Source: a virus (taxonomy: Duplodnaviria > Heunggongvirae > Uroviricota > Caudoviricetes). From it: DNA of 64,000 nucleotides. Below, piece after piece: positions 7,763-31,521 of the stretch; the first letter of the stretch is position 1, and every line of letters starts with the position of its first letter. Position numbers and translations under genes: made by a program. The notes under the pieces are model-generated. The model did not search any database and had not been told where the DNA came from. It saw nothing but the letters and a program-made list of their open reading frames with translations. The stretch is from the IMG/VR virus record IMGVR_UViG_2579778606_000002, positions 1 to 64,000 of that record. One strand, written 5' to 3'.

Positions 7763-7772
7763 GTTAGAAAAT
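7763..7772 (+). promoter_or_regulatory. operator-like motif TGTTAGAAAA (followed by TTAATTT)
   Basis: Exact copy of dispersed 10-mer; intergenic between dre and 7360..7704. Confidence 0.45.
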
Positions 7773-7776
7773 TAAT

Positions 7777-8805
7777 TTATGAATCCATCAGGCGACTATT
7801 TGCACCAACGGATGCCCCGCTACGGCGCAAATATCGCATAAGTGTTTCGGGCTTTTTCCATGTGCCTTCCTGCATGATCTCGACCATTGACACCTGTTTC
7901 TCAGCCATATCAATTGCCGCACCAACACGCGCACTATGGCCTGTCCACGTCCGGTATCTTCCCTTGTTCGGCGTGGCATCTCGTTTGTTCAGCAACCCCC
8001 AGGCATCGCTGAATATTTTCTCCATTGCAGGTGCAGTAAGGGGCGTTGTCGTGATTCTGGCCTTATTACTGCGGTGTATTGGCGGGAATAGCACCGCGTC
8101 CGGATGTTCTCGAAGTCCGGACACCTCCAGCCAGTCGTTCAGTACGGCGGTAGTGTAACGAGAAAGCACCTTATCAAGTCCGGCGGCGGTCGTGATGGTC
8201 TTCGTGTGTGAAATATGCAGCGTTACAGTGTCACCTCTTTGGTCCAGATCTCCGACACGGATGCGCGAGATTTCTGACATACGCATCAGGGTATTGTATG
8301 CCACGAAGAGAAACGCCCGATTGCGCAGGTCCACCAGCCGCTCGGAACGGGACAGCAACACGTCGAGCAATTTCAGATCATCCCACCGCAACGGTATAGC
8401 CTGGCCTGTTCGCTCGCCTTTTTCCGTTGCCGCTTCGCGCCGGATGCGCCGCATGGCCAGAGACACACTTTTATCGTCCGACAGCGGCGGGAGGCCACAT
8501 TGCGAAAGCAGCATGTTAAGCATGGCATAGTGCTTATCAATGGTGGTCGAAGCCAGATCGGCCTCATGCAACTGGAGAAGATACTCGCGGGCCATTTCCG
8601 GCGTAATCGGGAACCAGGGGCGCTGGCGCGAGTTACACCACCGCGCCCAGGAATGAAACACCAGACGGAGATCACGAAGTGTATTTGGGGCATAAGCTCC
8701 CTGGTCGTTCATGAACTGCATAAAGTTTTTTGCAGCTTCCTGGTATTCGGTGCCAATATCGCGCAGAAAACCACCAGAACCGCCGGAGATAACTAGTTCA
8801 CCCAT
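7777..8805 (-). CDS. dre: Cre-family tyrosine site-specific recombinase (Dre-like)
   Basis: 342 aa; collinear with Cre (…WFP..PE..R.YLL.L....LA..TI..H...LNML...SGLP.PSD...VSL.MRRIR…HSARVGAA.DMA…) and near-identical to what I recall of D6 Dre; cognate rox site 150 bp upstream. Confidence 0.85.
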   Translation of the reverse strand: MGELVISGGSGGFLRDIGTEYQEAAKNFMQFMNDQGAYAPNTLRDLRLVFHSWARWCNSRQRPWFPITPEMAREYLLQLHEADLASTTIDKHYAMLNMLLSQCGLPPLSDDKSVSLAMRRIRREAATEKGERTGQAIPLRWDDLKLLDVLLSRSERLVDLRNRAFLFVAYNTLMRMSEISRIRVGDLDQRGDTVTLHISHTKTITTAAGLDKVLSRYTTAVLNDWLEVSGLREHPDAVLFPPIHRSNKARITTTPLTAPAMEKIFSDAWGLLNKRDATPNKGRYRTWTGHSARVGAAIDMAEKQVSMVEIMQEGTWKKPETLMRYLRRSGASVGANSRLMDS

Positions 8806-8957
8806 GAAACTATTAAACCTCTATATACAGATAACGCTACGTGAAAAATAGAAAACTGACAGGGTAGTTATAAGTTAATTTTCAAAATTCAAGCCTTTGA
8901 TTCGAGGCATGATTTTTCATCCTTGTCAATACTGCCTGTTTACTGGAGATTATAGCC

Positions 8958-8989
8958 TAACTTTAAATAATGCCAATTATTTAAAGTTA
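8958..8989. other. rox: rox-type recombination site: 14-bp inverted arms TAACTTTAAATAAT / ATTATTTAAAGTTA around a GCCA spacer
   Basis: Read directly; identical to the 32-bp rox site I recall for Dre; lox-like architecture upstream of the recombinase gene. Confidence 0.8.
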
Positions 8990-9074
8990 GAAATCGGGAC
9001 TTTTTTCCCAAAAAAACACCGACAAGATCACTTCGCAAATCTGTCAGCCATGCGGTAGCCGTTTCCTGGTTACA

Positions 9075-9084
9075 TTTTCTAATA
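9075..9084 (-). promoter_or_regulatory. operator-like motif variant (TTTTCTAATA on plus strand = TATTAGAAAA on minus)
   Basis: Between rox and gene 9187..10224. Confidence 0.35.
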
Positions 9085-9158
9085 GGAACAATCAAAAAAA
9101 AGCGGTTTTATCCTTTACTCACCTTGTTATTCAGCATAAATTTGTCACAGGACTTTTA

Positions 9159-9168
9159 TGTTAGAAAA
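9159..9168 (+). promoter_or_regulatory. operator-like motif TGTTAGAAAA (followed by CTAAATC), 19 nt upstream of ATG 9187
   Basis: Exact 10-mer copy overlapping the likely promoter/RBS region. Confidence 0.45.
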
Positions 9169-9186
9169 CTAAATCGAGTAGGAATA

Positions 9187-10224
9187 ATGAGTAAGAAGTC
9201 GATCGAGAATGAGTACAAACGGTTCCTGCAAACCGCTGAACGGTGGAAAGAGCTGGTGGTCGCAAACTCTGTTTTCCATGATACCAGTTACGTTGGCGAG
9301 GAATTTCGCCATGTTGCATTAACACATGATCCGGCTGTATTAGAAGAAGCTGAAAAATGCATAGCCGAATGGAAAGCCTTTGTTGATCTGTGTCGCAAGG
9401 ATGATGACAAAGCCTCAAACATTGTTGAGTCGGTTTATTTACCGATCCCATTCATTGTTGAGGATACTAATCAGAGTACGCATATCGTTATGCAAAGCGC
9501 AACCACAACGAGAACATTTACGCGCGAAGACCTGCTGAAAAAATACGATAAAACTATAAAGAAAAGCATGAAAAACAGGATCTTTTCACAGGTTGTCGGT
9601 GCGCTTGAAGAAGAACGCAGATTCTTCGCCGCAGAACGTGAGGGCGAGGTATACCGCGCAAGAAAAGAAGGTTATACCGATGTGGTGATTACCACCAATA
9701 TCGAGGGCAACAATGGACTTTCACGCTTCAGAGTGGGTACGCACGGTGCGCTGATCTTTGCAAAAAAAGCAAACACAGAGATTCCCGTTGTTAACAACGT
9801 TGGTGAGCGCCGCACCCTTACCATTTACACTGGCATTAAACCGCTTCCGTGCGGACTTCTCGGCGAATTTGACCTTTATCGGGTTCGTGACCTGGAAAAG
9901 CAGCAGCCAAGCTATGTCGTGAAGTCATATATCCTGAGAAACATTGATATCCGCAATCAGAGTTTAAAAAACAAATCAGAGAAAATGCTGTCCGAAGCCG
10001 ATCCAGCCATACACCAGATCGTTAGCCGGAAAATTCAAGAAGCTAAAGATGCAATGGCAAGGCTGGATAAAATGGACCTGGAACTACTGGAAGTTATGAT
10101 TGCCTCCGGCGATGACCTGACAGGCATCCGCCTTACTGAAGCCAGGAAAAAATACGGTAAAAGCGTTGAAGAACGCTATGGGTACACATTCACACAAACG
10201 ATGTACGCGGCAAAACTCTGGTAA
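9187..10224 (+). CDS. hypothetical 345-aa protein, AT-rich gene adjacent to rox; possible repressor-position or accessory gene
   Basis: ATG at 9187 with AGGAA upstream (ORF track start 9124 is TTG); lower GC than flanks; flanked upstream by two operator-like motifs. Confidence 0.45.
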   Translation: MSKKSIENEYKRFLQTAERWKELVVANSVFHDTSYVGEEFRHVALTHDPAVLEEAEKCIAEWKAFVDLCRKDDDKASNIVESVYLPIPFIVEDTNQSTHIVMQSATTTRTFTREDLLKKYDKTIKKSMKNRIFSQVVGALEEERRFFAAEREGEVYRARKEGYTDVVITTNIEGNNGLSRFRVGTHGALIFAKKANTEIPVVNNVGERRTLTIYTGIKPLPCGLLGEFDLYRVRDLEKQQPSYVVKSYILRNIDIRNQSLKNKSEKMLSEADPAIHQIVSRKIQEAKDAMARLDKMDLELLEVMIASGDDLTGIRLTEARKKYGKSVEERYGYTFTQTMYAAKLW

Positions 10225-10261
10225 TCGCAAGCCACCCACAAGCCCCGAATCGCCGGGGCTT

Positions 10262-11770
10262 TTAAATGTCAATATCAGGAATATCCACTTCTGCCAACAC
10301 CTGATCGCGGAATGTTGCTAGTTCTGCGCCAATGTCTTCATTAGCAGGCACGTAATCCACCAGCATAGTGAAGCAGTAGGTATCCCATCTGTCCGGCGAC
10401 TTGATGTTTAACTTCTGCCGCATGTGCTCCTTGCGCATCATCGCCACCTTCCCTTCTTCGTTAAGCATATACGGGATTTTTGATGCCTGATCGGCAGTTT
10501 TGGGGTCACTATCGATACGCATACGCCCTGATTTAATGGCATCCCCTGCCATAATATTGGCGTAAGCACGCTGATTGACAAAGCGTTCTCTGTCTCTTAG
10601 CGCAAACATAGGTTTACCCCAACGGATGCGAACGGGATTAGCACCACGGCGGACAAGCTGCGCACACGTATCTGAACCAAAGCCATCAGCATCCACAGCA
10701 ATGGTGATGTTCGGGTATTTATCAGGAGTGCATTCGTTATAGATAAAGTCGGCAAAAGCCAACGGGTCCATAGTGCCTGGCATCTCCAGTATCTTAAAGT
10801 TCACAACACGTCGTTTCTCACGATAACCGGATACTTTGCATATATTGAGCACCGATTTGTCGCGACCATTACCGACGTCAGCGGTCGCTACCCAGCCCCA
10901 ATCTTTCTCCAGCAACACTTTACGCCGTGCGGCGCGGTCGCACTCATCACGACCAAGCAAATACCCGTTAATTGCACGCGGGAACTGGCCCAGCACCTTA
11001 ACCATGTACTCCAGCGAATCCCTGCCGCCGTACTCCAGCAATTTCTCACGAATAAAGCTCGGTTCAACGAATGGAGATTCTTCAGAGTTAAGGACTATTG
11101 CCGTCCAGACTCCTTCCGGATTGCCTTCTGCCTTTGCCCTTGAATGGTGGGATTCATAAAAGTAACCGCTTGGACGCGTAGGCTGGGAAAGCATGAGCAT
11201 ACGGTTATCTTTCTGCGTTAACGCCCCCGTCATGACGTTAATCGCCTTATCTGATATGCCCGATGCTTCATCAAGGATTAGCAGTAAATGCTCCGCGTGC
11301 TCCCCCGCCAGTGCCTCTTCGTTACCGAGTCGATAACCTTTACAGAGCACTTCCCATATCCCTTTACGGGAACGCTCATAAAACATGGTGTCAGACAGGA
11401 CAAAATAGGTCTGTAACCAGCCGTGGCGCTTAACAGCATTCGCCCAAAACTGTTTCACGTATTTGAATACGCCTGTTTTTACCTGGCCTATTTTGTTCGC
11501 AACAATAATGACGCGGGCGTCGGGGAACAGGATCATAAAAATTAGTAGCAACATCGCGGTAAGGGACGACTTACCCGTTCCGTGTCCGGACGTAACGGTC
11601 GTCCTGCTCCCCGTCTCCTGCACTGACTGAATGATCTGCTGCTGCTGGTGGGAGGGGAACATCCCAAAAATATCGACAACCGCCTGGGTAAAGTTGTATC
11701 GATACCTGATAACCATATCGCGCCAACGTGGATCACTGGTGACGCACTTAATCTTACGACCACCAGCCAT
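10262..11770 (-). CDS. pacB: terminase large subunit (PacB-like)
   Basis: 502 aa, Walker A GHGTGKS, nuclease-like C-terminal half; immediately downstream of pacA-like gene as in P1. Confidence 0.75.
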   Translation of the reverse strand: MAGGRKIKCVTSDPRWRDMVIRYRYNFTQAVVDIFGMFPSHQQQQIIQSVQETGSRTTVTSGHGTGKSSLTAMLLLIFMILFPDARVIIVANKIGQVKTGVFKYVKQFWANAVKRHGWLQTYFVLSDTMFYERSRKGIWEVLCKGYRLGNEEALAGEHAEHLLLILDEASGISDKAINVMTGALTQKDNRMLMLSQPTRPSGYFYESHHSRAKAEGNPEGVWTAIVLNSEESPFVEPSFIREKLLEYGGRDSLEYMVKVLGQFPRAINGYLLGRDECDRAARRKVLLEKDWGWVATADVGNGRDKSVLNICKVSGYREKRRVVNFKILEMPGTMDPLAFADFIYNECTPDKYPNITIAVDADGFGSDTCAQLVRRGANPVRIRWGKPMFALRDRERFVNQRAYANIMAGDAIKSGRMRIDSDPKTADQASKIPYMLNEEGKVAMMRKEHMRQKLNIKSPDRWDTYCFTMLVDYVPANEDIGAELATFRDQVLAEVDIPDIDI

Positions 11771-13134
11771 TAGTCATCCTCCGGCTGGTCTATCGCAATC
11801 TCGTCATCTACAGCATCAAAACCGGTATCCCCCGCGTCATAATCACCGTAGATATCAGCCGTGGCGGAAGGGTCTATATTCAGGTCTTCATCATTGGCCT
11901 CAAATTCACCGGCTTTACGTTCTCCGTTCCGGTCGTAATCCCCCATCCCAAGCCTATCAACGATTTTCGCTACTTCAGCCCGGCGTTGTGCAAGCCATTG
12001 TGGGAGTCCAGCTTGTTGCTCGGCAAACTGCTTCGCCTCTTTATCCAGTTGCTCATCATCAACATCGTTAACGTCAGAAACCGGAGGCTCCAGAAGTGAG
12101 ATCGCTTTTGCCGCTCGTGCCGCCAGGATAGCCGGGACACTGACGCCCTGCCGCTCGATATATTCAGCAACGCCTATATCGTCCAGCTCCTCGCGCTCAC
12201 GCATACGTATAGCGGCGGCGATAACTCTGGCGGCGCGTGCGTCAGCGCCAATGCGATACTCAATCTCTTTGCCACGCTGCTCGGCTTGCAGGCGAGTAAT
12301 CGCCAGTTTTTCTCTGGCCTCAGCCTCTCTGAATGCCTGCTGGCGCGCGCCCTGCGCAAGTTTTTCATCCCCCTGGCGTAGCTTCTGCTCGGTCTGGTAG
12401 ATGGCAGCCAACCTACTGATAAAGTCATTCATGTAGTAGGCCGCATCGCTTATTAGGCCGAGAAGACGCTGCCCTGGGTGCATTCCCTCTGGCTGTGTAT
12501 CGCCGAGGGCGTCAATCTCTTCCTGTAGTCGTTCCGCTTCCTGGTCAACGATGGCCTGATACTGAATTGCTCGTTCCTGCGCCATCTGTATCGCAAGTCG
12601 TAAATGTTCAGTCGCGCCGTTCTTCATCATCTCACGGGCGACGTTGGTGGCAGGCAAAGTGGCGCTTTGAGCTGATGAGTCAGGGATCATTTGCAATGAT
12701 CCCTTGTTTCGTTGGGCTTTTTCGCTGCTTTTAGGGATCATTTCCCCCATTTCATCACAAAATGATCCCCTTACATCCTTGTGTATCTTATTGTTATTAC
12801 TTGGCTTTTCTTTGTGATCCGCATTTTGTTTTTGCGGCATGGCGCGGAATCGTCCACCAGCTAACGATTTGTCAGTTTTTGTAAATTCTGTGCTTTTATC
12901 AGCCTTTTTTTGCTCTTTTTTTGGGCTTGTGGCGCTACTTTTTGCGCGCTGTTTTGTACTTTTCCCGGCAGCCTTAGCTTTCGCTTTAACCTCGTTTTTT
13001 TTCATATTGAGATGCTTTCTGGCGGTGTTAAAGCTGAGGTCATGCTGCTCGCAATATTCTTTTATGGTGATCCCGGTTTCTTCTCTTAACTCCAGGAACT
13101 TAGCTCGATGCGCTTCCCAGTTAATTAACGTCAT
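11770..13134 (-). CDS. pacA: terminase small subunit / pac-recognition protein (PacA-like)
   Basis: 454 aa, N-terminal HTH-like region, Lys-rich linker, acidic C-terminus; contains GATC-rich pac-like cluster near 5' end. Confidence 0.6.
   Translation of the reverse strand: MTLINWEAHRAKFLELREETGITIKEYCEQHDLSFNTARKHLNMKKNEVKAKAKAAGKSTKQRAKSSATSPKKEQKKADKSTEFTKTDKSLAGGRFRAMPQKQNADHKEKPSNNNKIHKDVRGSFCDEMGEMIPKSSEKAQRNKGSLQMIPDSSAQSATLPATNVAREMMKNGATEHLRLAIQMAQERAIQYQAIVDQEAERLQEEIDALGDTQPEGMHPGQRLLGLISDAAYYMNDFISRLAAIYQTEQKLRQGDEKLAQGARQQAFREAEAREKLAITRLQAEQRGKEIEYRIGADARAARVIAAAIRMREREELDDIGVAEYIERQGVSVPAILAARAAKAISLLEPPVSDVNDVDDEQLDKEAKQFAEQQAGLPQWLAQRRAEVAKIVDRLGMGDYDRNGERKAGEFEANDEDLNIDPSATADIYGDYDAGDTGFDAVDDEIAIDQPEDD
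12685..12829. other. pac: candidate pac site: five GATC-containing hexamer elements (TGATC[C/A]) within 145 bp inside 5' part of pacA
   Basis: GATC at 12685, 12698, 12736, 12764, 12826 embedded in repeated GGGATCA / TGATCC elements; P1 pac is a Dam-methylated hexamer cluster inside pacA. Confidence 0.45.
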
Positions 13135-13523
13135 AGGGAAGCCTCACGTTTTTTCACAGCGGCGTTCCATAGCTGGTTAGTCATCGCCACCAACTGACGC
13201 TGCTCCTTTCGTAATTGAGCTTCTATCTTTCGGTTGGTGTTTTTCACCAACAGCCGACCGAATTCAGGAGTGCGCCCGCGCACCTTGAACTGGTATCCAT
13301 TCAGGCCATGTAGCCAATATTTCCGGGGGTATACGCGGTCGTCTATTTCGCAAATGGCACGACTGGAACGAACAAAAAAACGTATGATGTTATTTACGTT
13401 TACGCGCGACACATGAAGGTGAGGATATTGTGCTTTTGCACGGCTGGTGATTTCGGTGACCGTCAGATAGCAGTCAGCCCTGATCATGATATCCGCTATT
13501 TCGGCGCTACTGATTTGCTCCAT
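13131..13523 (-). CDS. lpa: possible late promoter activator (Lpa-like), 130 aa
   Basis: Position immediately upstream of pacA as in P1; operator-like motif just upstream; assignment by synteny only. Confidence 0.35.
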   Translation of the reverse strand: MEQISSAEIADIMIRADCYLTVTEITSRAKAQYPHLHVSRVNVNNIIRFFVRSSRAICEIDDRVYPRKYWLHGLNGYQFKVRGRTPEFGRLLVKNTNRKIEAQLRKEQRQLVAMTNQLWNAAVKKREASL

Positions 13524-13600
13524 TTATCCCCCGGATAGAAAAAGACCGAGGGGATGATAATCAGCTTGTTAATACTGAGAAGACTGTCAAAAACATGATG

Positions 13601-13610
13601 TATTAGAAAA
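13601..13610 (+). promoter_or_regulatory. operator-like motif variant TATTAGAAAA (followed by TTAATATT) upstream of lpa-like gene
   Basis: Intergenic 13524..13630. Confidence 0.4.
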
Positions 13611-13630
13611 TTAATATTAACTTACTAACA

Positions 13631-14014
13631 CTACCAGCGGGATAAACGAACAACATGCTTAACTTTTGCCTCCCACTTCCCTTTATGTTTGTTGATCACC
13701 GCCTGCGCCATCTTCAGACTGGCTTCAAAATCGGCTTTTCGACCACTATTGCCCACCAGCAACGCTCCGTCTATTTCGGGTAAGCATAAGTAATCCTGCT
13801 CGACGGTAAGCGGCATTGATGATGTAACCTGGCAGGCTTTCCATCTGAAGCGTATGCGCACACTCCTGACTGACATCACGACATAACCTGATATTGTGCT
13901 CTTGTGTCCGGCGTCTGTGCGTGTAGCCTTGCATGATGTTATCTTGCAGGTGATGATGTCCCAACCAATGTGCATCGCATCCTCAATGCGTAATTTAGTA
14001 GCCTCGTACATCAA
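13631..14014 (-). CDS. hypothetical protein, 127 aa
   Basis: ORF in minus-strand operon. Confidence 0.4.
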   Translation of the reverse strand: MMYEATKLRIEDAMHIGWDIITCKITSCKATRTDAGHKSTISGYVVMSVRSVRIRFRWKACQVTSSMPLTVEQDYLCLPEIDGALLVGNSGRKADFEASLKMAQAVINKHKGKWEAKVKHVVRLSRW

Positions 14015-14586
14015 AAAACCTCCCAGTCAGTAGCGATAATATCGACACCAGTTGCAAACCAGTCTGTCTGCGCCTGTAAATCCCCATTCATCATTACCAG
14101 GCGAGGCATAACCATCACATCACAACCTTCAACAATATCGAATGCCTCTTCCGGCAGGAATTCGACGAGCTTTTCTTTGCTGCCAACACTGCCACGGAGC
14201 ATCGATATATAGCTCCCTTTAGGCCATGATGTTCGCCGGGCATCAAGCCCCTTCATCATCCAGTAAAAGGCCGATGAGAACGGGATGTTCTTTTTGGCGA
14301 TGAGCACGTTATTCGCTTCTGTGTACTTCAGGAACTTAACTAACCTTACCATCGACTCGGATAACGCAATGTACGGCTCATGATTGATTGCTGACACGCT
14401 TACGCCGTGCAGTCCAACACTTACCACTGTCATATCACCGTTCTGTGCGGTTTCGATGTTGACGCCTTTACGAACTAACGCTGCATAAAGCTCCTCGCGC
14501 TTTTGCGTCCAGCATTCTCGTCGCCCTATAAAGTCACTCAAAACGAGATCATCTTCTGAATACGCGTTATCGTTCGCCGTTAACAT
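14011..14586 (-). CDS. protein with C-terminal DUF2829-like domain
   Basis: FYWMMKGLDARRTSWPKGSYI ... DWFATGVDIIATDWEVF resembles DUF2829 signature (weaker than 5707..6369). Confidence 0.45.
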   Translation of the reverse strand: MLTANDNAYSEDDLVLSDFIGRRECWTQKREELYAALVRKGVNIETAQNGDMTVVSVGLHGVSVSAINHEPYIALSESMVRLVKFLKYTEANNVLIAKKNIPFSSAFYWMMKGLDARRTSWPKGSYISMLRGSVGSKEKLVEFLPEEAFDIVEGCDVMVMPRLVMMNGDLQAQTDWFATGVDIIATDWEVF

Positions 14587-15040
14587 AACGTCTCCTTTTT
14601 TACACGCGCGACTATCCCCCGGCTGAACCGGTAGTGACGTCGTAAATTCGTATTAATTAAGGGTTACAGCCTGAGCGGCTATATGATGAATTGAAAGGAG
14701 TTGTGGCGGTGGTGCCTCCACCTGCCAGGTTAGCCACGCCCGGCGACGACACTTATCAGAACGTAGTGAATGAAAATGGCTTCGTCACGAGCGCATAGCC
14801 GCAATTACCACAACGGAGAAGGCGCTCGTATTAATTAAACACCTTTTCCTGTTGTACGCCGTGCTATTCCGGCTGTCACACCGAATCGCCAGGATGGTGA
14901 GTCCCTGAGTCCGCTACCCTACCAACGGTGACTTGCACATTCCGGCTACCTGATGTGCCCATGCAGTGTTAGTAAGGCACCTAACAGCTACACCAGACCG
15001 CTAACGACGCATGTGCCATACGCCGTGTTACAACCAAATG

Positions 15041-15117
15041 TGGTGGCCCCTACCGGACTTGAACCGGTGACCGTGCGATTATGAGTCGCCCGCTCTAACC
15101 ACTGAGCTAAAGGGCCA
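15041..15117 (-). tRNA. tRNA-Ile2-like (anticodon CAU; could be read as Met without lysidine modification)
   Basis: Reverse complement GGCCCTTTAGCTCAGTGGTTAGAGCGGGCGACTCATAATCGCACGGTCACCGGTTCAAGTCCGGTAGGGGCCACCA folds as cloverleaf; anticodon arm GGCGACTCATAATCGC like E. coli ileX. Confidence 0.7.
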
Positions 15118-15544
15118 GATTACTGTTAATTACGCTTACGCTTTTTGCCAGAACCGCGTAAGGCTTTTGCCGCTTGCTCTACCCCGTATGCAACCACCAG
15201 CAGAAACAATAATGTCCACTCCGGGTTTTTATCGGCAAACGCCCAAAAATCCATCACTTGCAGCCACCTTTTAAGACAAACGCCATTGCTGTTAGGTTGC
15301 GGTGCCGGGTGCCTCCCGGTGACGTTAACCAGTTAACAATTAACGCCGGATCACTTATGGATTCTCGTTACGCCAGTAAAAAGACCACCTTTACTGTTTT
15401 AACTGTTCCGCGTGCGCTTAGCCGCATTCACCGCAATGGTAAGAGCATTTGGCTGACTGGGCGGCGATGACGCCTGTACGCATTTGGTGATCCGGTTCTG
15501 CTTCCGGCATTCGCTTAATTAGCCAAATACTCTTAACGTTGCGA

Positions 15545-15631
15545 TGGCGGAGAGTAATGGAATCGAACCATCATCGCTTGGGCGACGGGACGGTTTTCAA
15601 GACCGCTTGAGCACCATGCTCCCTACTCTCC
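15545..15631 (-). tRNA. class II tRNA, probable tRNA-Ser (anticodon UGA); D-arm atypical
   Basis: 7-bp acceptor GGAGAGT/ACTCTCC, discriminator G, CCA, anticodon loop CTTGAAA, long variable arm, T-loop TTCGATT. Confidence 0.45.
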
Positions 15632-15872
15632 AGTGATTGTGGTGGTCGGTGCTGATCTCCGACTGCGCCTCTTTTTTTCATAGCCCATAAGGCCGGTCAG
15701 TGCGCTTGATGACTGAGGCATCGATATTTACTACGCCGCCTCGTTGCCATAGGGCGGACTTGCGCGCCAGCAACGCGCATTCACCACAACGGTAAGGGTA
15801 CTTCGTAGGGATTCGAACCCTCTGCCAAGCACGGCGATCTCCGACGTCGCAAAATACCCTTACCTGTTGTGT

Positions 15873-15948
15873 TGGTGCCGGTTAACGGACTCGAACCGCT
15901 GACATCCTGCTTACAAGGCAGGCGCTCTACCAACTGAGCTAAACCGGC
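15873..15948 (-). tRNA. tRNA-Thr (anticodon UGU)
   Basis: GCCGGTTTAGCTCAGTTGGTAGAGCGCCTGCCTTGTAAGCAGGATGTCAGCGGTTCGAGTCCGTTAACCGGCACCA; canonical cloverleaf. Confidence 0.8.
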
Positions 15949-15952
15949 AATT

Positions 15953-16039
15953 TGGTGGGGAGTGATGGAGTCGAACCATCCGAGTCGCAATGACAGTAGA
16001 TTTACAGTCTACCCCGCTACCCCTACGGACTAACTCCCC
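15953..16039 (-). tRNA. class II tRNA, probable tRNA-Tyr (anticodon GUA)
   Basis: Acceptor GGGGAGT/ACTCCCC, anticodon arm GTAGACTGTAAATCTAC and variable arm similar to E. coli tRNA-Tyr; D-arm imperfect. Confidence 0.55.
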
Positions 16040-16044
16040 TAAAT

Positions 16045-16121
16045 TGGCGATGGTGGGTGGATTCGAACCACCGACCGACAGCTTAGAAGGCTGCTGCTCT
16101 ATCCTACTGAGCTACACCATC
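16045..16121 (-). tRNA. tRNA-Arg (anticodon UCU, reads AGA)
   Basis: GATGGTGTAGCTCAGTAGGATAGAGCAGCAGCCTTCTAAGCTGTCGGTCGGTGGTTCGAATCCACCCACCATCGCCA; canonical cloverleaf. Confidence 0.75.
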
Positions 16122-16582
16122 ACTTGCCGGGTACGTCTCCGGCGAGGGCTTCCACCTCCGTATGCTTTTCGGCGCACCGCGCCCTGGCTGCAATTCGGTA
16201 ACAGGGGATACACAACCCTGGCTTCCAGCGTGATTAGCGCCTTCAGCATGACGGGATATACCCGTTACAAGACATTATTCCAGAAAGCCATTAACCAATG
16301 GCTGTTACGCGGGAAGGACGTAACAGGTAAGGGCGCTGACCAGAAAGACCTGACCCTTCTCATTCATCTGGTTAATCACACCAGCGCCCTTGCCTGTTAT
16401 GCCTCCCCGTTCCCTAATACACAGACGGGGACACTCTGCGGTCGATTTTTTGACGGGGGACGACTCATACCCCGTGGCGTCAGGCTTCTTAGGCCGCTAC
16501 CATCATCAGATCATCGTTTGCATTTACTTTAATGGTCGGGTTCTAAACCGCCGCAAAGTCGCTAACCATGACGAAAACACTG

Positions 16583-16606
16583 AAAAAACACCCACCCGAA
16601 GGTGGG
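16583..16606 (-). terminator. rho-independent terminator (minus strand): CCCACC-TTCG-GGTGGG then TGTTTTTT
   Basis: Stem-loop with tetraloop followed by T-tract when read on minus strand. Confidence 0.5.
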
Positions 16607-17305
16607 CAAATATCCCACTCGCGGTATTGCCACTTAGGCGTATGGTCAACCTGGCAACTCGGTGTCCTCAACGGGGAAGGAATAACCCCGCCATACTTAC
16701 CGCCGCGCCTGTCGCGGTTATCGCTACGTATCAACATAAAAGCCGACTGCCTGAGCAAGATTCACTTTCAAAGGCCCGCAGAAAGGAATCCATAGTCGGC
16801 TTTTATCTTGAAGCGGCTCTCTCTCCGCCCGTCACCGTCCTATCCCGGTTGTCGCGTTTGCCACGCCAGCCGTAACGAGGTTTAAAGTCTTTTCACGTTT
16901 TCATCACTCGACTGCCGTCTATGGCTGTTCGTTGCAGCGGGGGTGCCTCCCCCTGGGGATATCCCCGGCCTTACCCCCATTCTTTCAAAACACAATGCAA
17001 GGCCACATCCGCATAGGTGCATTACCGCAACGTTAAGGAGACTCAGAGTCAGCAAAATAAGAGGAAAACCCAACTCTGCGCCTCCTTAACGTTGAGGATG
17101 TGCACTGATGATGACCCGATGCAGCCTGGCCCACTTAACATACTCACTGCCAGATCATCATCAATGAACACCTTAAAAAGACCTTCCGTGGCTCAAGTCA
17201 CTGTCGTTTACTCCGTAAAATGCTCTCGCTGAAACCACTTTACGCACTAAACCTGCCGGGCATGTATTTGCACGGTGCCGGAGCTTTCCCTTACCTTAAA
17301 ATTTA

Positions 17306-17316
17306 CTTTCTAACAC
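17306..17316 (-). promoter_or_regulatory. operator-like motif (CTTTCTAACAC on plus strand)
   Basis: Partial copy of dispersed motif in ORF-poor region. Confidence 0.3.
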
Positions 17317-17434
17317 TTAAGTTTGTTTGATGCTGGTGGGGGAAGACAATGAAGTGACTATCAAACCCGCAAGCGACATGGGAAGCTCCCCACCAGCACG
17401 AAAAATTCTATGTTAAGTTAATTCCATAATCAAC

Positions 17435-17464
17435 ATGTTAGAAAGATAATTTTAGTTTTCTAAC
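17435..17464. promoter_or_regulatory. inverted pair of operator-like motifs TGTTAGAAAG-N10-TTTTCTAACA
   Basis: Two half copies in opposite orientation at the 3' end of gene 17468..18676. Confidence 0.4.
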
Positions 17465-17467
17465 ACA

Positions 17468-18676
17468 TTATTTCCCGTAAAGATTTTCAACTCCACCGTT
17501 CTTCTTATCCCACTCGTTCGCCCATACCCGGCAAGCATCAATTATTTCCTGACGTCGATCGCCCTGCATGAACGGAATGCTTTCATGAAAGCTGCTTGGA
17601 ATGCAGGCCACACTGAACACTGTATCAAACTCAGTCTGCTTGATTGCCTCCAACGTCTCTGGACGCATTTTCAATTCGTCGATCGGTGCATCCTTAGAGT
17701 CCATAATCCGGCGATGTAAGCGTGGAAAATCCGTTTCAAGGTACGCCATAATTTTATCTGCCAGACATTCGTCTATGTCGGTATTCCAGTCAGTTTCGAA
17801 GCCAGGAATTCGGTAGTAAAGCGGCGCTCCCCATACTGACGGGATCACATCCATCGTCAGCAGGCGGCTGGTTCTGATTTGCTGATGGTAATTTGCCGTC
17901 AGCAACGCTTCGCCACGTTGCCCAGTCTCCGCGACCAGACCATGCGGAAACTCATGGATATAGGCAATAGCTTCTCTTCCGTCATACATTAGCGGGAATG
18001 TCTCTGGCCTTTGCCCCATGCCACAGGCGCGATTCAGATCATGACCAAGCTCTGAGCACTCTCGTTTCAATGTTTCAATAATGCTCTGCGCCGCTGCTAA
18101 CTTTTTACGCAGTGTGACGAGTTCGCCTTGATACTCAACGCATTGCTGATTTAGCTTGGTTAAACGCTCTTTTAGTTCCCGACGCTCTCTTTTCAGCGTG
18201 CGGTTATCTTTCTCCGCAACATCCAGTCGTTTTGTCAGGCTTGGCGGATAGTCTTTTTTGTAACGACTCAAATCGACTTCAGCAGATTTGCGCAGTGTAT
18301 TTGCCTGCTCAAGACGCGCCTCCAGATTGCCGATCTCATTACGCATATTCGCGGCAAATTGATTAACAGCATCCCCCAGGCTTTCAACTGTCGCTGATAC
18401 ACCAGTGACTTGAGAAAAACGGATCAAGCCATCATTAACGGCTTGCTGATATTCCTCAAACTGATCCACCAGCTTATTGTAATCAACTGCCCCATCATCA
18501 AGGAGCTGGTTGATTTCCGCCACCAGGTTATCTGTAGTGGCAATGACGCTCTCATGCAGTCGCTTTGACAGGTCATCGCCCGGATTTCGTTTCTGTATAA
18601 GCGCGATTTGTGTCCGCAGCGTTTCAATTGCGGTTGAGATGATCTCCAGGCTTGATGATTCTACTTGCTGACTCAT
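17468..18676 (-). CDS. hypothetical protein, N-terminal coiled coil (approx residues 100-220) plus C-terminal globular domain
   Basis: 402-aa ORF with heptad-rich region (…LEARLEQANTLRKSAEVDLSRYKK…LKRERRELKERLTKLNQQ…); own operator-like motif upstream. Confidence 0.55.
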   Translation of the reverse strand: MSQQVESSSLEIISTAIETLRTQIALIQKRNPGDDLSKRLHESVIATTDNLVAEINQLLDDGAVDYNKLVDQFEEYQQAVNDGLIRFSQVTGVSATVESLGDAVNQFAANMRNEIGNLEARLEQANTLRKSAEVDLSRYKKDYPPSLTKRLDVAEKDNRTLKRERRELKERLTKLNQQCVEYQGELVTLRKKLAAAQSIIETLKRECSELGHDLNRACGMGQRPETFPLMYDGREAIAYIHEFPHGLVAETGQRGEALLTANYHQQIRTSRLLTMDVIPSVWGAPLYYRIPGFETDWNTDIDECLADKIMAYLETDFPRLHRRIMDSKDAPIDELKMRPETLEAIKQTEFDTVFSVACIPSSFHESIPFMQGDRRQEIIDACRVWANEWDKKNGGVENLYGK

Positions 18677-18700
18677 GTTTGTTCCCTTTCTTGAAATTAG

Positions 18701-18710
18701 TTTTCTAACA
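18701..18710 (-). promoter_or_regulatory. operator-like motif (TTTTCTAACA on plus strand) about 25 nt upstream of gene 17468..18676
   Basis: Exact 10-mer copy. Confidence 0.45.
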
Positions 18711-18752
18711 TATTTTATTAGTATGCAATTTCAATAAAAAGACTCAGGCAAC

Positions 18753-18774
18753 AAAAAACCCGCCAACTGGCGGG
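18753..18774 (-). terminator. rho-independent terminator (minus strand): CCCGCC-AGTT-GGCGGG followed by TTTTTTGTT
   Basis: Hairpin plus T-tract read on minus strand, directly after stop of gene 18786..19112. Confidence 0.55.
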
Positions 18775-19308: not shown

Positions 19309-19755
19309 TTAATCAAGATTTACATATTCCGTGATAGCTTTTATGGCTTCATCGGCACTGCGCGCCTCAAAGCAGTAATAGCCTGCTTCCGTGAGGCGAG
19401 TCATCCAGACGAGCTGTTCGGGAGTCAGACGGTTTCTCCCGTGCTTCATCTCAATGCGCATTCCGTGATACCCACCACGAGCAAGGTCAATAGAAAGGTC
19501 CGGATAGCCCTTCTTCTGACCTTCTGCCACCATCTTAATGGCTGTCCTTTTGCCTCTCAGGCCGCCGTTCGGTGTTGAGTGTGTGTGCTCATACACGTAT
19601 CGCATGTTGCGATACAGCCAATCCAGAACGCGAACCTGTTCGTAATGTTCGTAATTCCGTTTTAATAAGTCAGGATTTCTTTCTAACTCTCTCAGTGCAG
19701 CAGCGTGCGGGGATATTTCAGAATACGCACTATGATGCCTGCGTCTTCGCATCAA
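19309..19755 (-). CDS. VRR-NUC domain nuclease (PD-(D/E)xK fold)
   Basis: E..EQ..V..WL…PNGG.R…KKGYPDL…GGYHGMRIEMK.G…L.P.Q..W…L..AG pattern typical of VRR-NUC. Confidence 0.6.
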   Translation of the reverse strand: MMRRRRHHSAYSEISPHAAALRELERNPDLLKRNYEHYEQVRVLDWLYRNMRYVYEHTHSTPNGGLRGKRTAIKMVAEGQKKGYPDLSIDLARGGYHGMRIEMKHGRNRLTPEQLVWMTRLTEAGYYCFEARSADEAIKAITEYVNLD

Positions 19756-19765
19756 ATTTCTAACA
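19756..19765 (-). promoter_or_regulatory. operator-like motif variant (ATTTCTAACA on plus strand) abutting the ORF-track start of the VRR-NUC gene
   Basis: Motif copy; suggests the true start of the nuclease gene may be internal. Confidence 0.35.
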
Positions 19766-19941: not shown

Positions 19942-20202
19942 TTAATGGTTTATTTTATCAGGCTCGTTAATTTCCATAACCGCCTTGTCGATAGCAATCA
20001 TCCATCCTTCATAGGATAAATCATCAACAAGTCCCACCAGCTTATCGTCAGTGTGCGGAAAATAAATCCATCCCCATTTCGAAGGGTTTTCTATATGCCG
20101 CAGGGTAAATACCCGCTTATAACGGTGGTATTCAAGGGCGTATCCCTTCCCTTGTGAGTACGCTTTTAAGTCGTCGATCGTAAACCTACGATTCTTCCGC
20201 AT
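19942..20202 (-). CDS. hypothetical protein, 86 aa
   Basis: ORF only. Confidence 0.35.
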   Translation of the reverse strand: MRKNRRFTIDDLKAYSQGKGYALEYHRYKRVFTLRHIENPSKWGWIYFPHTDDKLVGLVDDLSYEGWMIAIDKAVMEINEPDKINH

Positions 20203-20204
20203 GG

Positions 20205-20639
20205 CTACCCCACGATTCGATATTTCTCTATAGACTCGTCGTAACTTGTGTATACGTATGGCTCTGTATCATCAGCATAAGGCGCGACTTCCAGAGCATG
20301 AACGGGATTGTATACCGCGTCATTTTCCAGGCGATCGCTCGAATACAGATGCCCGGCTAAAACCGTAAGCGCCGGGCGACTCATTTTGTAGATTTCTGCC
20401 ACATCACTATCTACAACTTGTCCAAATGATATGTCGCCACGCTCCAGCAATAACGTTTTAAGCGCAGGCCACCACGGCCCATAAAGATGATAAAGCTGTG
20501 GATCTCTTTTCAGCCTTTCCGCCATGCCATCCAGATATGCATCCAGAAACGCCTCTTCACTCCTGCCATTGAGCGCCTGCGGCAAAATGTCCTCAAGGTA
20601 GGATTCCGTCGGTTTTACAGTGTCAATTAATGTCGTCAT
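20205..20639 (-). CDS. hypothetical protein, 144 aa
   Basis: ORF directly downstream of darB-like gene. Confidence 0.4.
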   Translation of the reverse strand: MTTLIDTVKPTESYLEDILPQALNGRSEEAFLDAYLDGMAERLKRDPQLYHLYGPWWPALKTLLLERGDISFGQVVDSDVAEIYKMSRPALTVLAGHLYSSDRLENDAVYNPVHALEVAPYADDTEPYVYTSYDESIEKYRIVG

Positions 20640-20675
20640 TCAAATTCGGCCCCGGTTGGGGCCGCTCCTTATCTG

Positions 20676-27527: not shown

Positions 27528-27623
27528 AACCGTTAAATCCGCCTTAAGCGGTACGGTTTGAGAGGGTATGGAGTGTGTTAATTTCGCAGAATCACACCCC
27601 GAAGGTTCTTACTCAAAAGGGGA

Positions 27624-28121
27624 TCATGGTTGAACCTGGATAACATCACCGTTCTTAACGGTAATGATTTTGTTCAGAAGAACGATTTGCGGGAAATGTC
27701 CAGCATACCAACTGAACGAACCAATCACTTCATACTGGCCTGGTGGTACGTTTTCGAACTCAAATTTGCCTTGAGCATCAGTCAGGACAGTTCTGTCATA
27801 TTCCGCAACCCTGCCGTCGATTATTTCTAAGGTCTGAGTGTCGTAATCAATTTTGGGGGTATTTTTGATATATGAAGTATACGGACGCAGTATGATATTG
27901 GAGCCAGCACCAATCTTCACATCCCCTCCGCGAGTTACTCCAAATAATTCCCCCTTAACCTTACCTGTGCCTTTTTTCGGCAATGCCTGATATTCCTCTA
28001 CAGGGAATGCTGGGCGTTTAACAAACTGTTTTACTTGCTGAGGCTTGTTGTATGTCTGAACCGGAGCGCATCCTGATAATGCAAATGCACAAACAATAGT
28101 CGCTAATATTGCTTTTTTCAT
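27624..28121 (-). CDS. lipoprotein with carboxypeptidase-regulatory-like (transthyretin-fold) domain
   Basis: Start ATG at 28121 (MKKAILATIVCAFALSGC lipobox); TDAQGKFEFENVPPGQYEV motif. Confidence 0.55.
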   Translation of the reverse strand: MKKAILATIVCAFALSGCAPVQTYNKPQQVKQFVKRPAFPVEEYQALPKKGTGKVKGELFGVTRGGDVKIGAGSNIILRPYTSYIKNTPKIDYDTQTLEIIDGRVAEYDRTVLTDAQGKFEFENVPPGQYEVIGSFSWYAGHFPQIVLLNKIITVKNGDVIQVQP

Positions 28122-28314
28122 AACTTTCTCTTTTCTCAAATAAATAACGCAAACCAATAATAACCAGTGTTATCATTAACTTAGCGCAACTTAACTTTTC
28201 TGTTAGATAATACATTGAATAAAGTTAAAGATGAATGCCGTTTAATAATGTTTGGTGTAATAGAAATCACATTCTCAACATAGTTATTGCTCTTTTTTCA
28301 TTCGGAGCATGATT

Positions 28315-28800
28315 ATGATCAATAATGAACCTCGCTGGCTTATTGAAGCCCGTAAAAATATTGGAGTCACCGAAATAAAAGGAGCGAAACACAATCCTGA
28401 GATCGTCCAGTTCTGGCGGGATATTAAGCGCGGTGGAATTAAAGACGATGAAACGCCGTGGTGCGCAGCATTTGTCGGTGCAATGCTGGAACGTGTAGGC
28501 ATCCGCTCAACAAGATTTGAGTCGGCAAAATCCTATCTGGATTGGGGCGAGAAATTAGATACACCGGCATACGGATGTATCGTTGTATTTACTCGCGCAG
28601 GCGGTGGGCATGTAGGCTTTGTTGTCGGACGCCGCGCCAATGGCGATCTGCTTGTCTTGGGTGGGAACCAGGGGGATGCTGTTAATATTCGCGCATTCCC
28701 AACATCAAGAGTGTCTGGCTATCGCTGGCCTGCTGGCGAACCACGCAATACAGCTCTGTTACCTGTCGGCGACGCAGCAACCTCAACTAATGAGGCATGA
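28315..28800 (+). CDS. TIGR02594-family / CHAP-like putative peptidoglycan hydrolase
   Basis: Conserved Cys (PWCAAFVG) and His (GGGHVGFVVG) catalytic-pair pattern; GGAG 7 nt upstream of ATG 28315. Confidence 0.55.
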   Translation: MINNEPRWLIEARKNIGVTEIKGAKHNPEIVQFWRDIKRGGIKDDETPWCAAFVGAMLERVGIRSTRFESAKSYLDWGEKLDTPAYGCIVVFTRAGGGHVGFVVGRRANGDLLVLGGNQGDAVNIRAFPTSRVSGYRWPAGEPRNTALLPVGDAATSTNEA

Positions 28801-29028
28801 AAAAGCCCCGGCCAGGCCGGGGCATCACACTTCAAGTTACGATCCAATCATTACCGACTGCATCCGCCGTCGATAAATCGACTTCCCGGATCTGGCATCC
28901 ATTAATACAAAACCATCCGGTAGTAGAGCAATTATCAGGCCAGATCCATATACCAACACTCCATGCTTTACGGCAGCACACTTCAGCCTGTCCTTCCCTG
29001 ATTTTTTTTACCGCCTGCATGATGTCCA

Positions 29029-29736
29029 TCACTCGCCTCCCCAACCGATCACCTGGAATTGTCCCATCCTTGGGTGATACCAGCGTTTTCCTCGGTGTTC
29101 AGCCTCCGACATCATCAGGGTAAAGGCATTCATGAAGGGAGATAAGGCCACAATAGTACGACGCGACAATACCCCCTCTGGCGTCAAAAACTCATGCGTA
29201 TCTGTGGGAATCCGGTAAGCGTTGACCAGGTTACGGCATTTGGCTTCAGTCAGGCCACATTTCGCCGCTAACTGGCGATAGCCAATGTAACCTTCTGGCA
29301 TGTTGCCCTTCTTGATCTGCTCGACGGTTTCAGCAACCTGGCTAACCTTTGACTCAACAACATGAAGCCGCTTTTGCTGCTGAACTGCATTTGCAGCCAT
29401 TGCAGCGATCATCTCTATTTCGGTCAACGGCTGGCGTACTTGTTCTTCCAGTTCGCGCCAGCGGTCCACCAGCCGGGCGGTGAATTCGGGAGAGAGCTGC
29501 GCAACGACGATAATGCTATCGCGCTTGCCTTGCTCGCCTTCGAAGACGTAAGCCTCAACACTACGTCGTAGTCCTAAGTTATTGATTTTTTCGAAAACCT
29601 CAATTTGAGGACGAACAATAACGCCACCTTTGTCTAATGTCTCAATAGTGCGTTTCACATTGTCATGACGTTTTCCCACCAGCTCCGCGATCTCAATGCT
29701 GGTCATTGATGGCTTTTCGAGAATGCAGATATCCAT
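29029..29736 (-). CDS. ant: Rha-family regulator / putative antirepressor (Ant-like)
   Basis: N-terminal TSIEIAELVGKRHDNVKRTIETL matches phage Rha domain; ATGA translational coupling with upstream icd-like ORF as described for P1 immI. Confidence 0.5.
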   Translation of the reverse strand: MDICILEKPSMTSIEIAELVGKRHDNVKRTIETLDKGGVIVRPQIEVFEKINNLGLRRSVEAYVFEGEQGKRDSIIVVAQLSPEFTARLVDRWRELEEQVRQPLTEIEMIAAMAANAVQQQKRLHVVESKVSQVAETVEQIKKGNMPEGYIGYRQLAAKCGLTEAKCRNLVNAYRIPTDTHEFLTPEGVLSRRTIVALSPFMNAFTLMMSEAEHRGKRWYHPRMGQFQVIGWGGE

Positions 29737-29960
29737 CAGTGAGACTCCGCAATGCCGGGATTGGTAATATTGCGATACCAGGGATTGGTGTTTGGTTGTG
29801 GGGAAGTAGAGAAACGACCAGTGAGAACGCCATACTGATCAGGGATCAGAGAACGGGCTTCTTTTTCAGTTGCGGCAATTGCGAAGTGATCGCAGTGTTT
29901 TTGCAGGGAGTGAAAACGCCAGATGAATTCTGGACGTGAGCAAGGATTGGCATTAACCAT
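29736..29960 (-). CDS. icd: small ORF in icd position (74 aa), translationally coupled to ant
   Basis: GAGG 8 nt upstream of ATG; stop overlaps ant start; size equals P1 Icd (73 aa); assignment by architecture not sequence. Confidence 0.35.
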   Translation of the reverse strand: MVNANPCSRPEFIWRFHSLQKHCDHFAIAATEKEARSLIPDQYGVLTGRFSTSPQPNTNPWYRNITNPGIAESH

Positions 29961-30019
29961 AGTTACGGCCTCACTAACAGGTTTAACAACCTGCTACCCG
30001 CTGCTAAACAGGTGGCAGG

Positions 30020-30110
30020 ACGTGACGGGGTTAGCAGACTGGCGTTAGTGAAACCAGCAGGCCGAAGCCTCCCCATCACGCCCCACCATAATTTGGGCGT
30101 AACGCGGTTT
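30020..30110 (-). ncRNA. c4: candidate C4-like antisense RNA (contains a'/b' elements CACTAAC … CTGCTAAC complementary to two flanking target pairs)
   Basis: Minus-strand RNA would carry CACTAAC and CTGCTAAC (30030..30050) complementary to GTTAGTG / GTTTAGCAG copies at 30156..30183 and 29972..30013 (the latter just upstream of icd RBS); boundaries approximate. Confidence 0.4.
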
Positions 30111-30290
30111 TACGGACACAAAAATACCGCAATATCGGATATCTGCGGTTGTCCGCACTAACATTCAGGCTGCTAAACCCGGTCGCAGAATTTGCTACGA
30201 CGGCATGAATATAAGCCTGAACATTAGAAAGATCAACAGAATTTTTATCAGATGCTGTTTTTTAGTGACGATATAAATCATACATTCTTG

Positions 30291-30319
30291 ATTAGAAACA
30301 TCAATTTAATTTTCTAACA
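30291..30319. promoter_or_regulatory. operator-like motifs (ATTAGAAACA and TTTTCTAACA, inverted pair) upstream of the immI-like region
   Basis: Motif copies in intergenic 29961..30376. Confidence 0.45.
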
Positions 30320-30376
30320 TACATTTTCGAGCGATGAAATTCCCGCCGCACGGTTATTGTACAGTCAATCGCAACA

Positions 30377-31339
30377 TCATCCCCGAAAGCCCTCCGGAAT
30401 TGACCAGTCTTCCCGGTCAAATTCAGACCGATAGCCACGCTGTTTCATCAGGTCAAAGGCTTCACCAATGGTTGCACACCCCTGGGAGCCAGAATAATCC
30501 ATTGAGAAATCCAGGGCACTGGATTGTTTAGGCTTATTCACTGCTGTAGCGGCACTACGTATCCATGCAAATTTTTTTGCCAGCTTTTCAGCGGTACGAT
30601 ACAGAGCCTGCCGTTTTGCGTGCCCCTCATCTGAACGACGCTTTGCAGCTCTCGCTTTTGCCGCCGCCAGGCAGTGGTTGGTATGTTCTTCCCTGATTAC
30701 TGGTTTTTTATCCAGACCCCCATTATCCGCTTGAGAACTATCTGCTGGTGAAGCCTTTGGCTGAACCGCGCATGATCTTTCTCTTCTTTTGGCTATAGAG
30801 TGACTCTTATTTTCTATTGGCTGTTCATTTTGAACATGGGGGGACTTGTTCAATTTGAACAGGGGGTTCCCAGTTTCAAAAAAATAACGAACCTTTGAAA
30901 TCAACTGCTTAACCAGTTTTGTGGCGTTGGCAAATTTGATGCCCTGCTTACTCCCTATCTCCATTGCTACATGAATGAAGTGGAGAAATTGTGTTGTAAA
31001 CCGGTACACGTTACACACCTGAGCATTGTTATTCGCTACCTGATGCTGCTTAACAAGCATTCCGCACTTCGTCGCTTCGGCAAATGCCCGGCGCACAGTA
31101 GAAATACTGCGTCCTGTAATCTCGGACATATCCGCATATGAGCGACGGATCATGTATTCATCGGTAGCTCCTGCCAGGTTGGCGAACTCGGCAATAATGG
31201 CGCTATGTGAAGGGGAAAGAAAACCGCTATGACGAGCAAAAAAACTCAACTGATGACCTTTGATTTTTTTGTGGTATTCAGTGTTGTTTTTATACTCAGA
31301 AGTGTTGAAAGTAACTGAAACTGAATTTAAAATACTCAC
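30377..31339 (-). CDS. HTH DNA-binding protein, 320 aa (function unknown; replication or regulatory)
   Basis: HTH-like MSEITGRSISTVRRAFAEATKCGML; basic Lys/Arg/Ala-rich middle region. Confidence 0.5.
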   Translation of the reverse strand: MSILNSVSVTFNTSEYKNNTEYHKKIKGHQLSFFARHSGFLSPSHSAIIAEFANLAGATDEYMIRRSYADMSEITGRSISTVRRAFAEATKCGMLVKQHQVANNNAQVCNVYRFTTQFLHFIHVAMEIGSKQGIKFANATKLVKQLISKVRYFFETGNPLFKLNKSPHVQNEQPIENKSHSIAKRRERSCAVQPKASPADSSQADNGGLDKKPVIREEHTNHCLAAAKARAAKRRSDEGHAKRQALYRTAEKLAKKFAWIRSAATAVNKPKQSSALDFSMDYSGSQGCATIGEAFDLMKQRGYRSEFDREDWSIPEGFRG

Positions 31340-31511
31340 CAGATAGTTCCGTGAAAAATCTATCTACCGTATAAATCTATGCCAGTGGATTTATACACCC
31401 AAAAGCCGCTACTCAGCGGCTTTTGCTTTTTTTGGCAGTCGCTACCGGAGCAGTGACCGCGATCCTACTCGATCACGTGCCGTCGGATCAACAGTGTATA
31501 AAAACACACTG

Positions 31512-31521
31512 TGTTAGAAAA
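31512..31521 (+). promoter_or_regulatory. operator-like motif TGTTAGAAAA (followed by TTAAGCT) upstream of gene 30377..31339
   Basis: Exact 10-mer copy in intergenic 31340..31538. Confidence 0.45.

Follow-up and report, generated by a model that had tools for sequence, protein, structure and literature searches.

An asymmetric 17-bp motif dispersed over a D6-like plasmid prophage: probable operators of a C1-family master repressor

Introduction

Phages P1 and P7 provide the closest described case of a prophage master repressor, C1, that works through dispersed sites: asymmetric operators of about 17 bp (P1 consensus ATTGCTCTAATAAATTT), about 20 of them over a plasmid prophage of about 90 kb, stand singly or as overlapping inverted (“divalent”) operators at the operons c1, lpa, c4-icd-ant, repL, pmgR/S, tRNA, ref and hrdC-dmt. 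P1 has been reported to carry 22 operators (PMC8546580). Here we analyse a stretch of 64,000 nucleotides, positions 1 to 64,000 of IMG/VR virus record IMGVR_UViG_2579778606_000002 (“the window” below), from a D6-like relative of the P1 plasmid prophage, and describe a dispersed motif that very probably represents the operator set of the C1-family master repressor of this element. The kind of system is already known from P1 and P7; the window most likely presents the P1 design with a different recognition sequence.

Lambdoid CI and Cro resemble C1 in that they combine a prophage master repressor, multiple operators and autoregulation; lambdoid operators, however, are dyad-symmetric, dimer-bound and clustered at one or two loci, whereas the D6-type sites are asymmetric and spread genome-wide. 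Asymmetric sites figure in the title of a 1987 paper by Eliason and Sternberg, “Evidence for multiple asymmetric sites”. In the D6 GenBank records there is no annotation of the D6-type operator sequence, of its regulon or of the 30-bp geometry of its pairs, and full-text literature searches found the motif in no paper, a result that leaves room for an earlier description, for example in the D6 genome literature.

Results

A dispersed asymmetric motif in intergenic DNA

The 10-mer TGTTAGAAAA or its complement occurs at six places in the window (7762, 9159 and 31512 on the plus strand; 17456, 18701 and 30310 on the minus strand), against 0.16 expected, and none of 100 dinucleotide-preserving shuffles reaches six. 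The preliminary description of this DNA had counted seven copies: the excess over chance that it noticed holds, the exact count is six, and its coordinates are right to within one base (7763 is 7762, 17455 is 17456 and 17435 is 17436). With up to one mismatch allowed there are 17 matches in the window against 5.4 expected, and an unbiased enrichment scan ranks TGTTAGAAA second among all 9-mers.

Alignment of the sites reveals a conserved block of about 17 bp, TGTTAGAAAAyTAAwtT, whose information profile spans positions 1–17, including A14 and T17, and shows no self-complementarity; the site is therefore asymmetric, with no internal dyad. The corresponding 17-bp matrix finds 13 sites of at least 14 bits (the threshold for a site used here) at 10 loci, against 1.7 in shuffles, a figure that carries ascertainment bias because the matrix was grown from its own seed motif. 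On a heuristic gene map by which 11.9% of the window is non-coding, all 13 sites are intergenic (P ~9e-13), as had been claimed for every copy; matches with at most one mismatch in coding DNA (at 11, 25255, 28201, 57708, 58786 and 61197) score at most 12.9 bits and are accounted for by chance. Most sites have the orientation of the gene that follows them, and in the matrix scan the late-gene half of the window (32–64 kb) is free of strong copies.

Three loci (13601–13630, 17436–17465 and 30290–30319) carry inverted pairs, each exactly 30 bp long: the AT-rich ends of the two 17-mers share 4 bp, and the 10-mers lie exactly 10 bp apart. The offset is always 13 nt, in the three pairs of the window, in six of the E. 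coli plasmid NZ_LR890273 and in two of D6. Inverted pairs had been noticed before, with a spacing given as 10–13 bp; the pairs are there, and their spacing is fixed. The earlier list had also overlooked the partner site at 13614–13630 (minus strand), which the matrix found, and had entered as a one-mismatch copy at 30291 what is GATTAGAAAC at 30290–30299, with three mismatches and discernible only through its place in an inverted pair.

Conservation among D6-like elements

In D6, which is fully annotated, all 16 sites of at least 14 bits are intergenic (10.2% of the genome is non-coding; P ~1e-16), and shuffled D6 intergenic DNA yields 0.4 sites against the 16 observed; neither the window (13 of 13 sites) nor D6 (16 of 16) shows the motif at equal density in coding DNA. 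In a conservation alignment of seven loci from five elements (the window, D6, two E. coli plasmids and one Salmonella plasmid), 90% of columns are invariant within sites compared with 67% in 70-bp flanks (P 4e-8). Both halves of the pair upstream of c4 are kept although the upstream flank is unrelated between elements.

That flank, window positions 30320–30390, is not homologous to D6 or to three further relatives (L007–L009). As the pair is kept while the flank is non-homologous, the arrangement suggests a recombination junction at the c4 operator.

The whole plasmid NZ_LR890273 holds about 22 sites of at least 14 bits, with inverted pairs at six loci. In D6 and the near-identical plasmid, copies beyond the window stand upstream of ref and of hrdC-dam, before a second icd module, between a ppp-like and a DUF968 gene, and before the capsid gene.

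Sites and their genes

The window shares 83% identity with Escherichia phage D6 across most of 7–20 kb; its identity to E. coli plasmid NZ_LR890273.1 is 98.7%. A 25-kb query from the window is covered to at least 80% by 90 plasmid records, and the close relatives examined (D6 and L006–L009) all come from E. coli or Salmonella. Its gene order is dre, rox, c1, pacB, pacA, lpa, with the C1-family gene beside a recombination site and pac genes.

The leftmost putative operator, the single site TGTTAGAAAATTAATTT (7762–7778, plus strand, 26.7 bits), lies just past the stop codon of dre (7777–8805, minus strand) and upstream of a leftward operon starting at 7704; it is kept in D6, in L007–L009 and in the distant elements L010–L012. 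The recombination site rox (8958–8989, plus strand), an exact 32-nt match, is a landmark between dre and c1 (9187–10224, plus strand), the gene of the 345-residue candidate master repressor. Between rox and c1 stands a weaker site, TATTAGAAAATGTAACC (9068–9084, minus strand, 16.5 bits), with a minus-strand counterpart at the same relative place in L010–L012, and TGTTAGAAAACTAAATC (9159–9175, plus strand, 23.9 bits) ends 11 nt before the ATG of c1. The latter, presumed to be the autoregulation site of c1, is invariant at 17 of 17 columns across the five elements, as would be expected for autoregulation if C1 is the binder.

The late promoter activator gene lpa (13131–13523, minus strand; Pfam PF25716 BPP1_LPA, E 3.7e-50), a presumed repressed target, is preceded by the pair at 13601–13630 (13601–13617, plus strand, 23.7 bits; 13614–13630, minus strand, 18.7 bits), of which the plus-strand half is conserved. 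The leftward tRNA operon has one site within its leader, TGTTAGAAAGTAAATTT (17299–17315, minus strand, 22.1 bits), whose counterpart in D6 and L007 scores 15.6 bits, and the pair at 17436–17465 (23.3 and 23.8 bits), which abuts the −35 of a promoter-like TTGATT-17-TAGAAT (17433 to 17405, minus strand) reading toward five tRNA genes (16121–15041, minus strand). The 1.3-kb leader between this pair and the tRNA genes yielded nothing credible in a permissive Rfam search.

Farther right, TGTTAGAAAACTAATTT (18694–18710, minus strand, 25.6 bits) lies between pmgR and pmgS, 18 nt before the start of a pmgS-like gene (17468–18676, minus strand) and overlaps the −10 of TTGAAA-16-TATGTT (18734 to 18707), just after a terminator (18777–18756); all 17 of its columns are invariant, compared with 56% of flank columns. 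A weaker site, TGTTAGAAATTTGATGC (19749–19765, minus strand, 17.8 bits), precedes a VRR-NUC/pmgM-like gene and is weakly kept in relatives (D6 site 11358, 13.0 bits). A darB-like gene stands between the pmgS-like gene and the antirepressor gene in the local gene order. Upstream of the c4-icd-antirepressor module, the pair at 30290–30319 (15.3 and 26.4 bits) covers the −35 of TTGATG-16-TATGAT (30304 to 30277); the C4 antisense RNA of this immI-like module (30008–30093, minus strand; Rfam RF01695, 70 bits) lies downstream of the pair, and the a1b1 target element of C4 RNA is at 30162–30214 (RF03163). The rightmost site, TGTTAGAAAATTAAGCT (31512–31528, plus strand, 23.0 bits), is 173 bp upstream of a repL-like lytic replication gene (30377–31339, minus strand; named from D6 and PGAP annotation of homologues), another presumed repressed target, and occupies a conserved position in D6 and L007–L009.

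Comparison with the operators of P1

P1 operators and late promoters were taken from the annotation of the P1 record, and the operator comparison covers those listed there: operators at c1/coi, lpa (Olpa), c4 (Oc4), kilA-repL (OrepL), pmgR-pmgS (OpmgRa/b), pmgL/pmgM (O26, Oppp), tRNA-tciA-ban (the divalent Obanab), ref (Oref), uhr-hrdC-dmt (Odmt) and mat, among others. The window has sites at the matching operons c1, lpa, c4-icd-antirepressor, repL, pmgR/pmgS, the pmgM-like gene and the tRNA operon, where its pair is the positional analogue of Obanab, and also downstream of dre. The D6-type sites thus share with those of P1 and P7 an asymmetric unit of about 17 bp, dispersal in about 20 copies over a plasmid prophage of about 90 kb, the same set of operons, a mixture of single and overlapping inverted operators, and a repressor of the same protein family.

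The recognition sequence is different, as the preliminary description had noted: a matrix of the P1 operator recovers 21 sites in P1 itself but no site in the window or in D6, and the D6-type matrix finds nothing strong in P1. The pairs also differ: D6-type pairs span 30 bp with a 13-nt offset, whereas Obanab spans 28 bp with an 11-nt offset, and pairs are common in the D6-type system (six loci in NZ_LR890273), whereas one divalent operator is among the P1 operators listed, those outside the c1-proximal part of the record. The P1 operator reads TTATTAGAGCAAT on its other strand, and the clades may share a TTAG(A) core. A natural operator swap at the nucleotide level was considered and rejected: the window's tRNA-operon operator region and P1 Obanab show no homology there.

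C1 and its clades

The C1 of the window is 80% identical to D6 C1. Like P1 C1 (283 residues), it matches phrog_1678 over its full length (E 1e-159 for the window protein and 3e-140 for P1 C1); the NCBIfam phage_rep_C1 model gives a colinear match to it that falls below the model's cut-off (E 1.7e-5), and its homologues carry Pfam PF27008 Phage_P7_repressor_C1. Judged by these profiles, it is a remote member of the P1/P7 C1 family and not an equivalog. D6-type C1, at 345 residues, has an extra helical C-terminal region of about 100 residues, whereas family members of 250–285 residues, P1 C1 included, are without it.

The motif follows the C1 clade. Three metagenomic or assembled elements with C1 proteins 49, 48 and 43% identical to that of the window carry TGTTAGAAAA at matching positions, namely downstream of the recombinase gene, in front of c1 (two copies) and in front of lpa; in four elements with C1 proteins 34, 30, 25 and 23% identical, the 8–21 kb sampled around c1 contain no copy of TGTTAGAAA. 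In the element with the 34% identical C1 (L015), the word wTTAGAT(T/A) takes the analogous places within 3274–8606, after the integrase gene and before c1, including inverted pairs, and 15 of 18 NTTAGA hexamers (N = A, G or T) are intergenic where non-coding DNA makes up 16%; it is probably the operator of that element's own C1. De novo operator searches in L016 and L018 returned just tandem repeats and terminator-like words; the only candidates come from L015 and, loosely, from L018, where GTTAG(G/T)AAAAA-like words occur near c1. A motif that changes with the C1 clade behaves as an operator should.

One of the distant C1-encoding elements, L016, has an intergenic tandem array at 17685–17790, of an 8-bp unit (AAAACTGA) in about nine or more copies.

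Predicted fold of C1

In the PDB, the predicted structure of C1 gives a tentative match to Tus and to no other protein. Tus works as a monomer and binds asymmetrically to its site (PMC10331603), and the D6-type sites are likewise asymmetric; the likeness does not extend to the DNA or to function, since TerB (AATAAGTATGTTGTAACTAAAGT) differs from the D6-type site, Tus acts in fork arrest whereas transcriptional repression is proposed here, and the D6-type sites, unlike Ter, have no obvious polarity around the replicon. Sequence homology between C1 and Tus was rejected as not convincing: hhalign gives a probability of 0.2% with a 10-sequence profile, and of 6.4% (pairwise E 0.0057) with an 82-sequence profile. 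Profile searches of PDB sequences with C1 returned nothing, PDB searches turned up no solved structure of the C1 family, and a BFVD structure search with C1 gave no match.

Other features of the window

The tRNA cluster (15041–16121) differs in content from that of D6: the window encodes Arg(tct), Tyr(gta), Thr(tgt), Ser(tga) and Met(cat), and D6 encodes Asn, Thr, Ser and Met. In D6 (L001, MF356679), ARAGORN places the tRNA genes of 6084–7850 on the minus strand and adds a tRNA-Met at 6084–6159; GenBank lists three, on the plus strand. Window positions 14857–16726, part of the tRNA region, are 87% identical to the leader of the P1 ban operon. Chi-containing 9-mers are enriched 11- to 16-fold over expectation in the window (TGCTGGTGG, 17 copies; CCCACCAGC, 12 copies), and copies near 17340 and 17390 flank the leader of the tRNA operon. 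On the minus strand at 8949–8976, a sigma-70-like promoter, TTGGCA-16-TATAAT (11 of 12 positions), points toward dre with its −35 inside the rox spacer. About 14 copies of TTGACTrTAyGCGA, spaced by about 21 bp, flank a RepB/RepA-type initiator gene at 55276–56700 and represent plasmid replication iterons; the top-ranked 9-mer, TTGACTATA, was considered as a late promoter and rejected, as it belongs to these iterons.

Discussion

Our analysis argues strongly that the dispersed motif is the operator set of a C1-family master repressor in a D6-like plasmid prophage of E. coli, on the grounds of motif statistics, placement, conservation and co-occurrence with one clade of C1 proteins; the role of C1 as the binder and the repressive effect of its binding are our inference. 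The proposal in the preliminary description, dispersed asymmetric operators of the P1 type for a repressor of distinct specificity, is supported by every computational test.

It is context that names C1 as the binder, which leaves some room for another protein—Lpa at late promoters, a host nucleoid protein or a different phage regulator—and we regard such a binder as quite improbable. P1 late promoters consist of a 9-bp element at −22 (AAGTGACTT-like) and TANNNT, arranged as AAGTGACTT-N-TANNNT before late operons, and the motif differs from all 11 annotated examples, so that a late promoter was rejected; moreover, the motif stands before lpa itself, as well as before c1, c4 and repL, and strong copies are absent from 32–64 kb. 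A host site would not change with the phage C1 clade, and the site directly upstream of c1 is invariant in five elements. Nor does a promoter element recognised by RNA polymerase itself, for example an early-promoter consensus or a TGnTAGAAA of the extended −10 kind, account well for the observations: at pmgS, TATGTT or TGTTAGAAA overlaps predicted −10 positions, c1 and c4 have upstream sequence that can be read in this way too, and the majority of sites are co-oriented with the downstream gene, but overlap with promoters does not discriminate, as P1 operators likewise overlap −10 or −35 elements, and the strong, conserved sites 7762, 13601 and 31512 face away from any gene. Exact 30-bp inverted pairs, information over 17 bp including A14 and T17, and a TAGAAA without the final T that −10 hexamers conserve likewise speak against a promoter element, as does the variation of the motif with C1 clade while D6 and L006–L009 all come from E. 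coli or Salmonella; we hold this explanation to be very improbable. Chance recurrence of an AT-rich word, or a functionless remnant of a dispersed repeat, would draw on the somewhat AT-rich intergenic DNA (43.6% GC in D6); shuffled intergenic DNA yields far fewer sites than the 16 observed, the sites are conserved above their flanks and retained where flanks are unrelated, and their loci stay the same in elements with C1 identity as low as 43%. Shuffles and conservation together exclude chance recurrence, and the probability we leave to this explanation as a whole is close to negligible.

Several observations weigh against a C1 operator set. The second halves of the pairs and the sites at 9068 and 19749 are poorly conserved in relatives, and promoters are not definable at the strong sites 7762, 13601 and 31512, which face away from the nearest gene. 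The C1 proteins of the window and P1 are about 19% identical and non-significant in pairwise comparison, the score of the window protein against the NCBIfam C1 model is 24.5 bits, far below the cut-off of 500, and the likeness of the D6-type and P1 matrices is not above that of column-shuffled controls, in a comparison with the minor flaw that one P1 site was in the wrong orientation. The accessory proteins of P1 are also poorly represented: by tblastn the window has no homologue of Coi, the antirepressor of the c1 operon, and, unlike in P1, the stretch from the operators to c1 is free of a coi gene. Nor is there a clear Lxc, the corepressor, for which the match is weak and non-significant (41% over 39 residues, E 0.58). 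This match is an open reading frame at 19942–20202 (minus strand, 86 residues) in the position of P1 lxc, downstream of ulx and darB, and belongs to a PHROG different from that of Lxc; it may encode a diverged corepressor.

If the motif is the C1 operator, then in the prophage state C1 (9187–10224) would occupy about 20 sites around the element, 13 of them in the window, at or beside promoters. Its binding would silence lpa and, by way of Lpa, every late gene. Lytic replication would be blocked through repL, and the c4-icd-antirepressor module, the tRNA operon, pmgS and the c1 gene would be repressed too, as would ref and hrdC-dam beyond the window. Inactivation of C1 by the antirepressor would then bring about derepression.

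The structural lead permits a more tentative proposal, which we consider possible though somewhat short of probable: that P1- and D6-like C1 proteins act as single chains of Tus-like fold; that their operators keep a TTAG(A) core while adjacent bases set immunity specificity (TTAGAAAA for the D6 type, TTAGAT for L015, TTAGAG/TTAGTG-CAAT for P1); and that the C-terminal helical extension of D6-type C1 pairs two monomers on 30-bp inverted operators. The link between that extension and the frequency of 30-bp pairs is speculation. A Tus-like fold, if true, would explain the asymmetric, dyad-less operators of the whole C1 family, and it offers a lead to a structural model for C1-type repressors that read asymmetric sites.

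D6-like phage-plasmids are frequent in both E. coli and Salmonella, and knowledge of the operator would give the repressor regulon and hence the genes that are silent in the prophage. It would also supply components of an orthogonal repressor/operator pair to complement the P1 and Dre/rox tools. As a predictor of immunity group, the operator would place together elements whose C1 proteins are at least 43% identical, which have the core in common and hence, like P1 and P7, probably a common C1 specificity.

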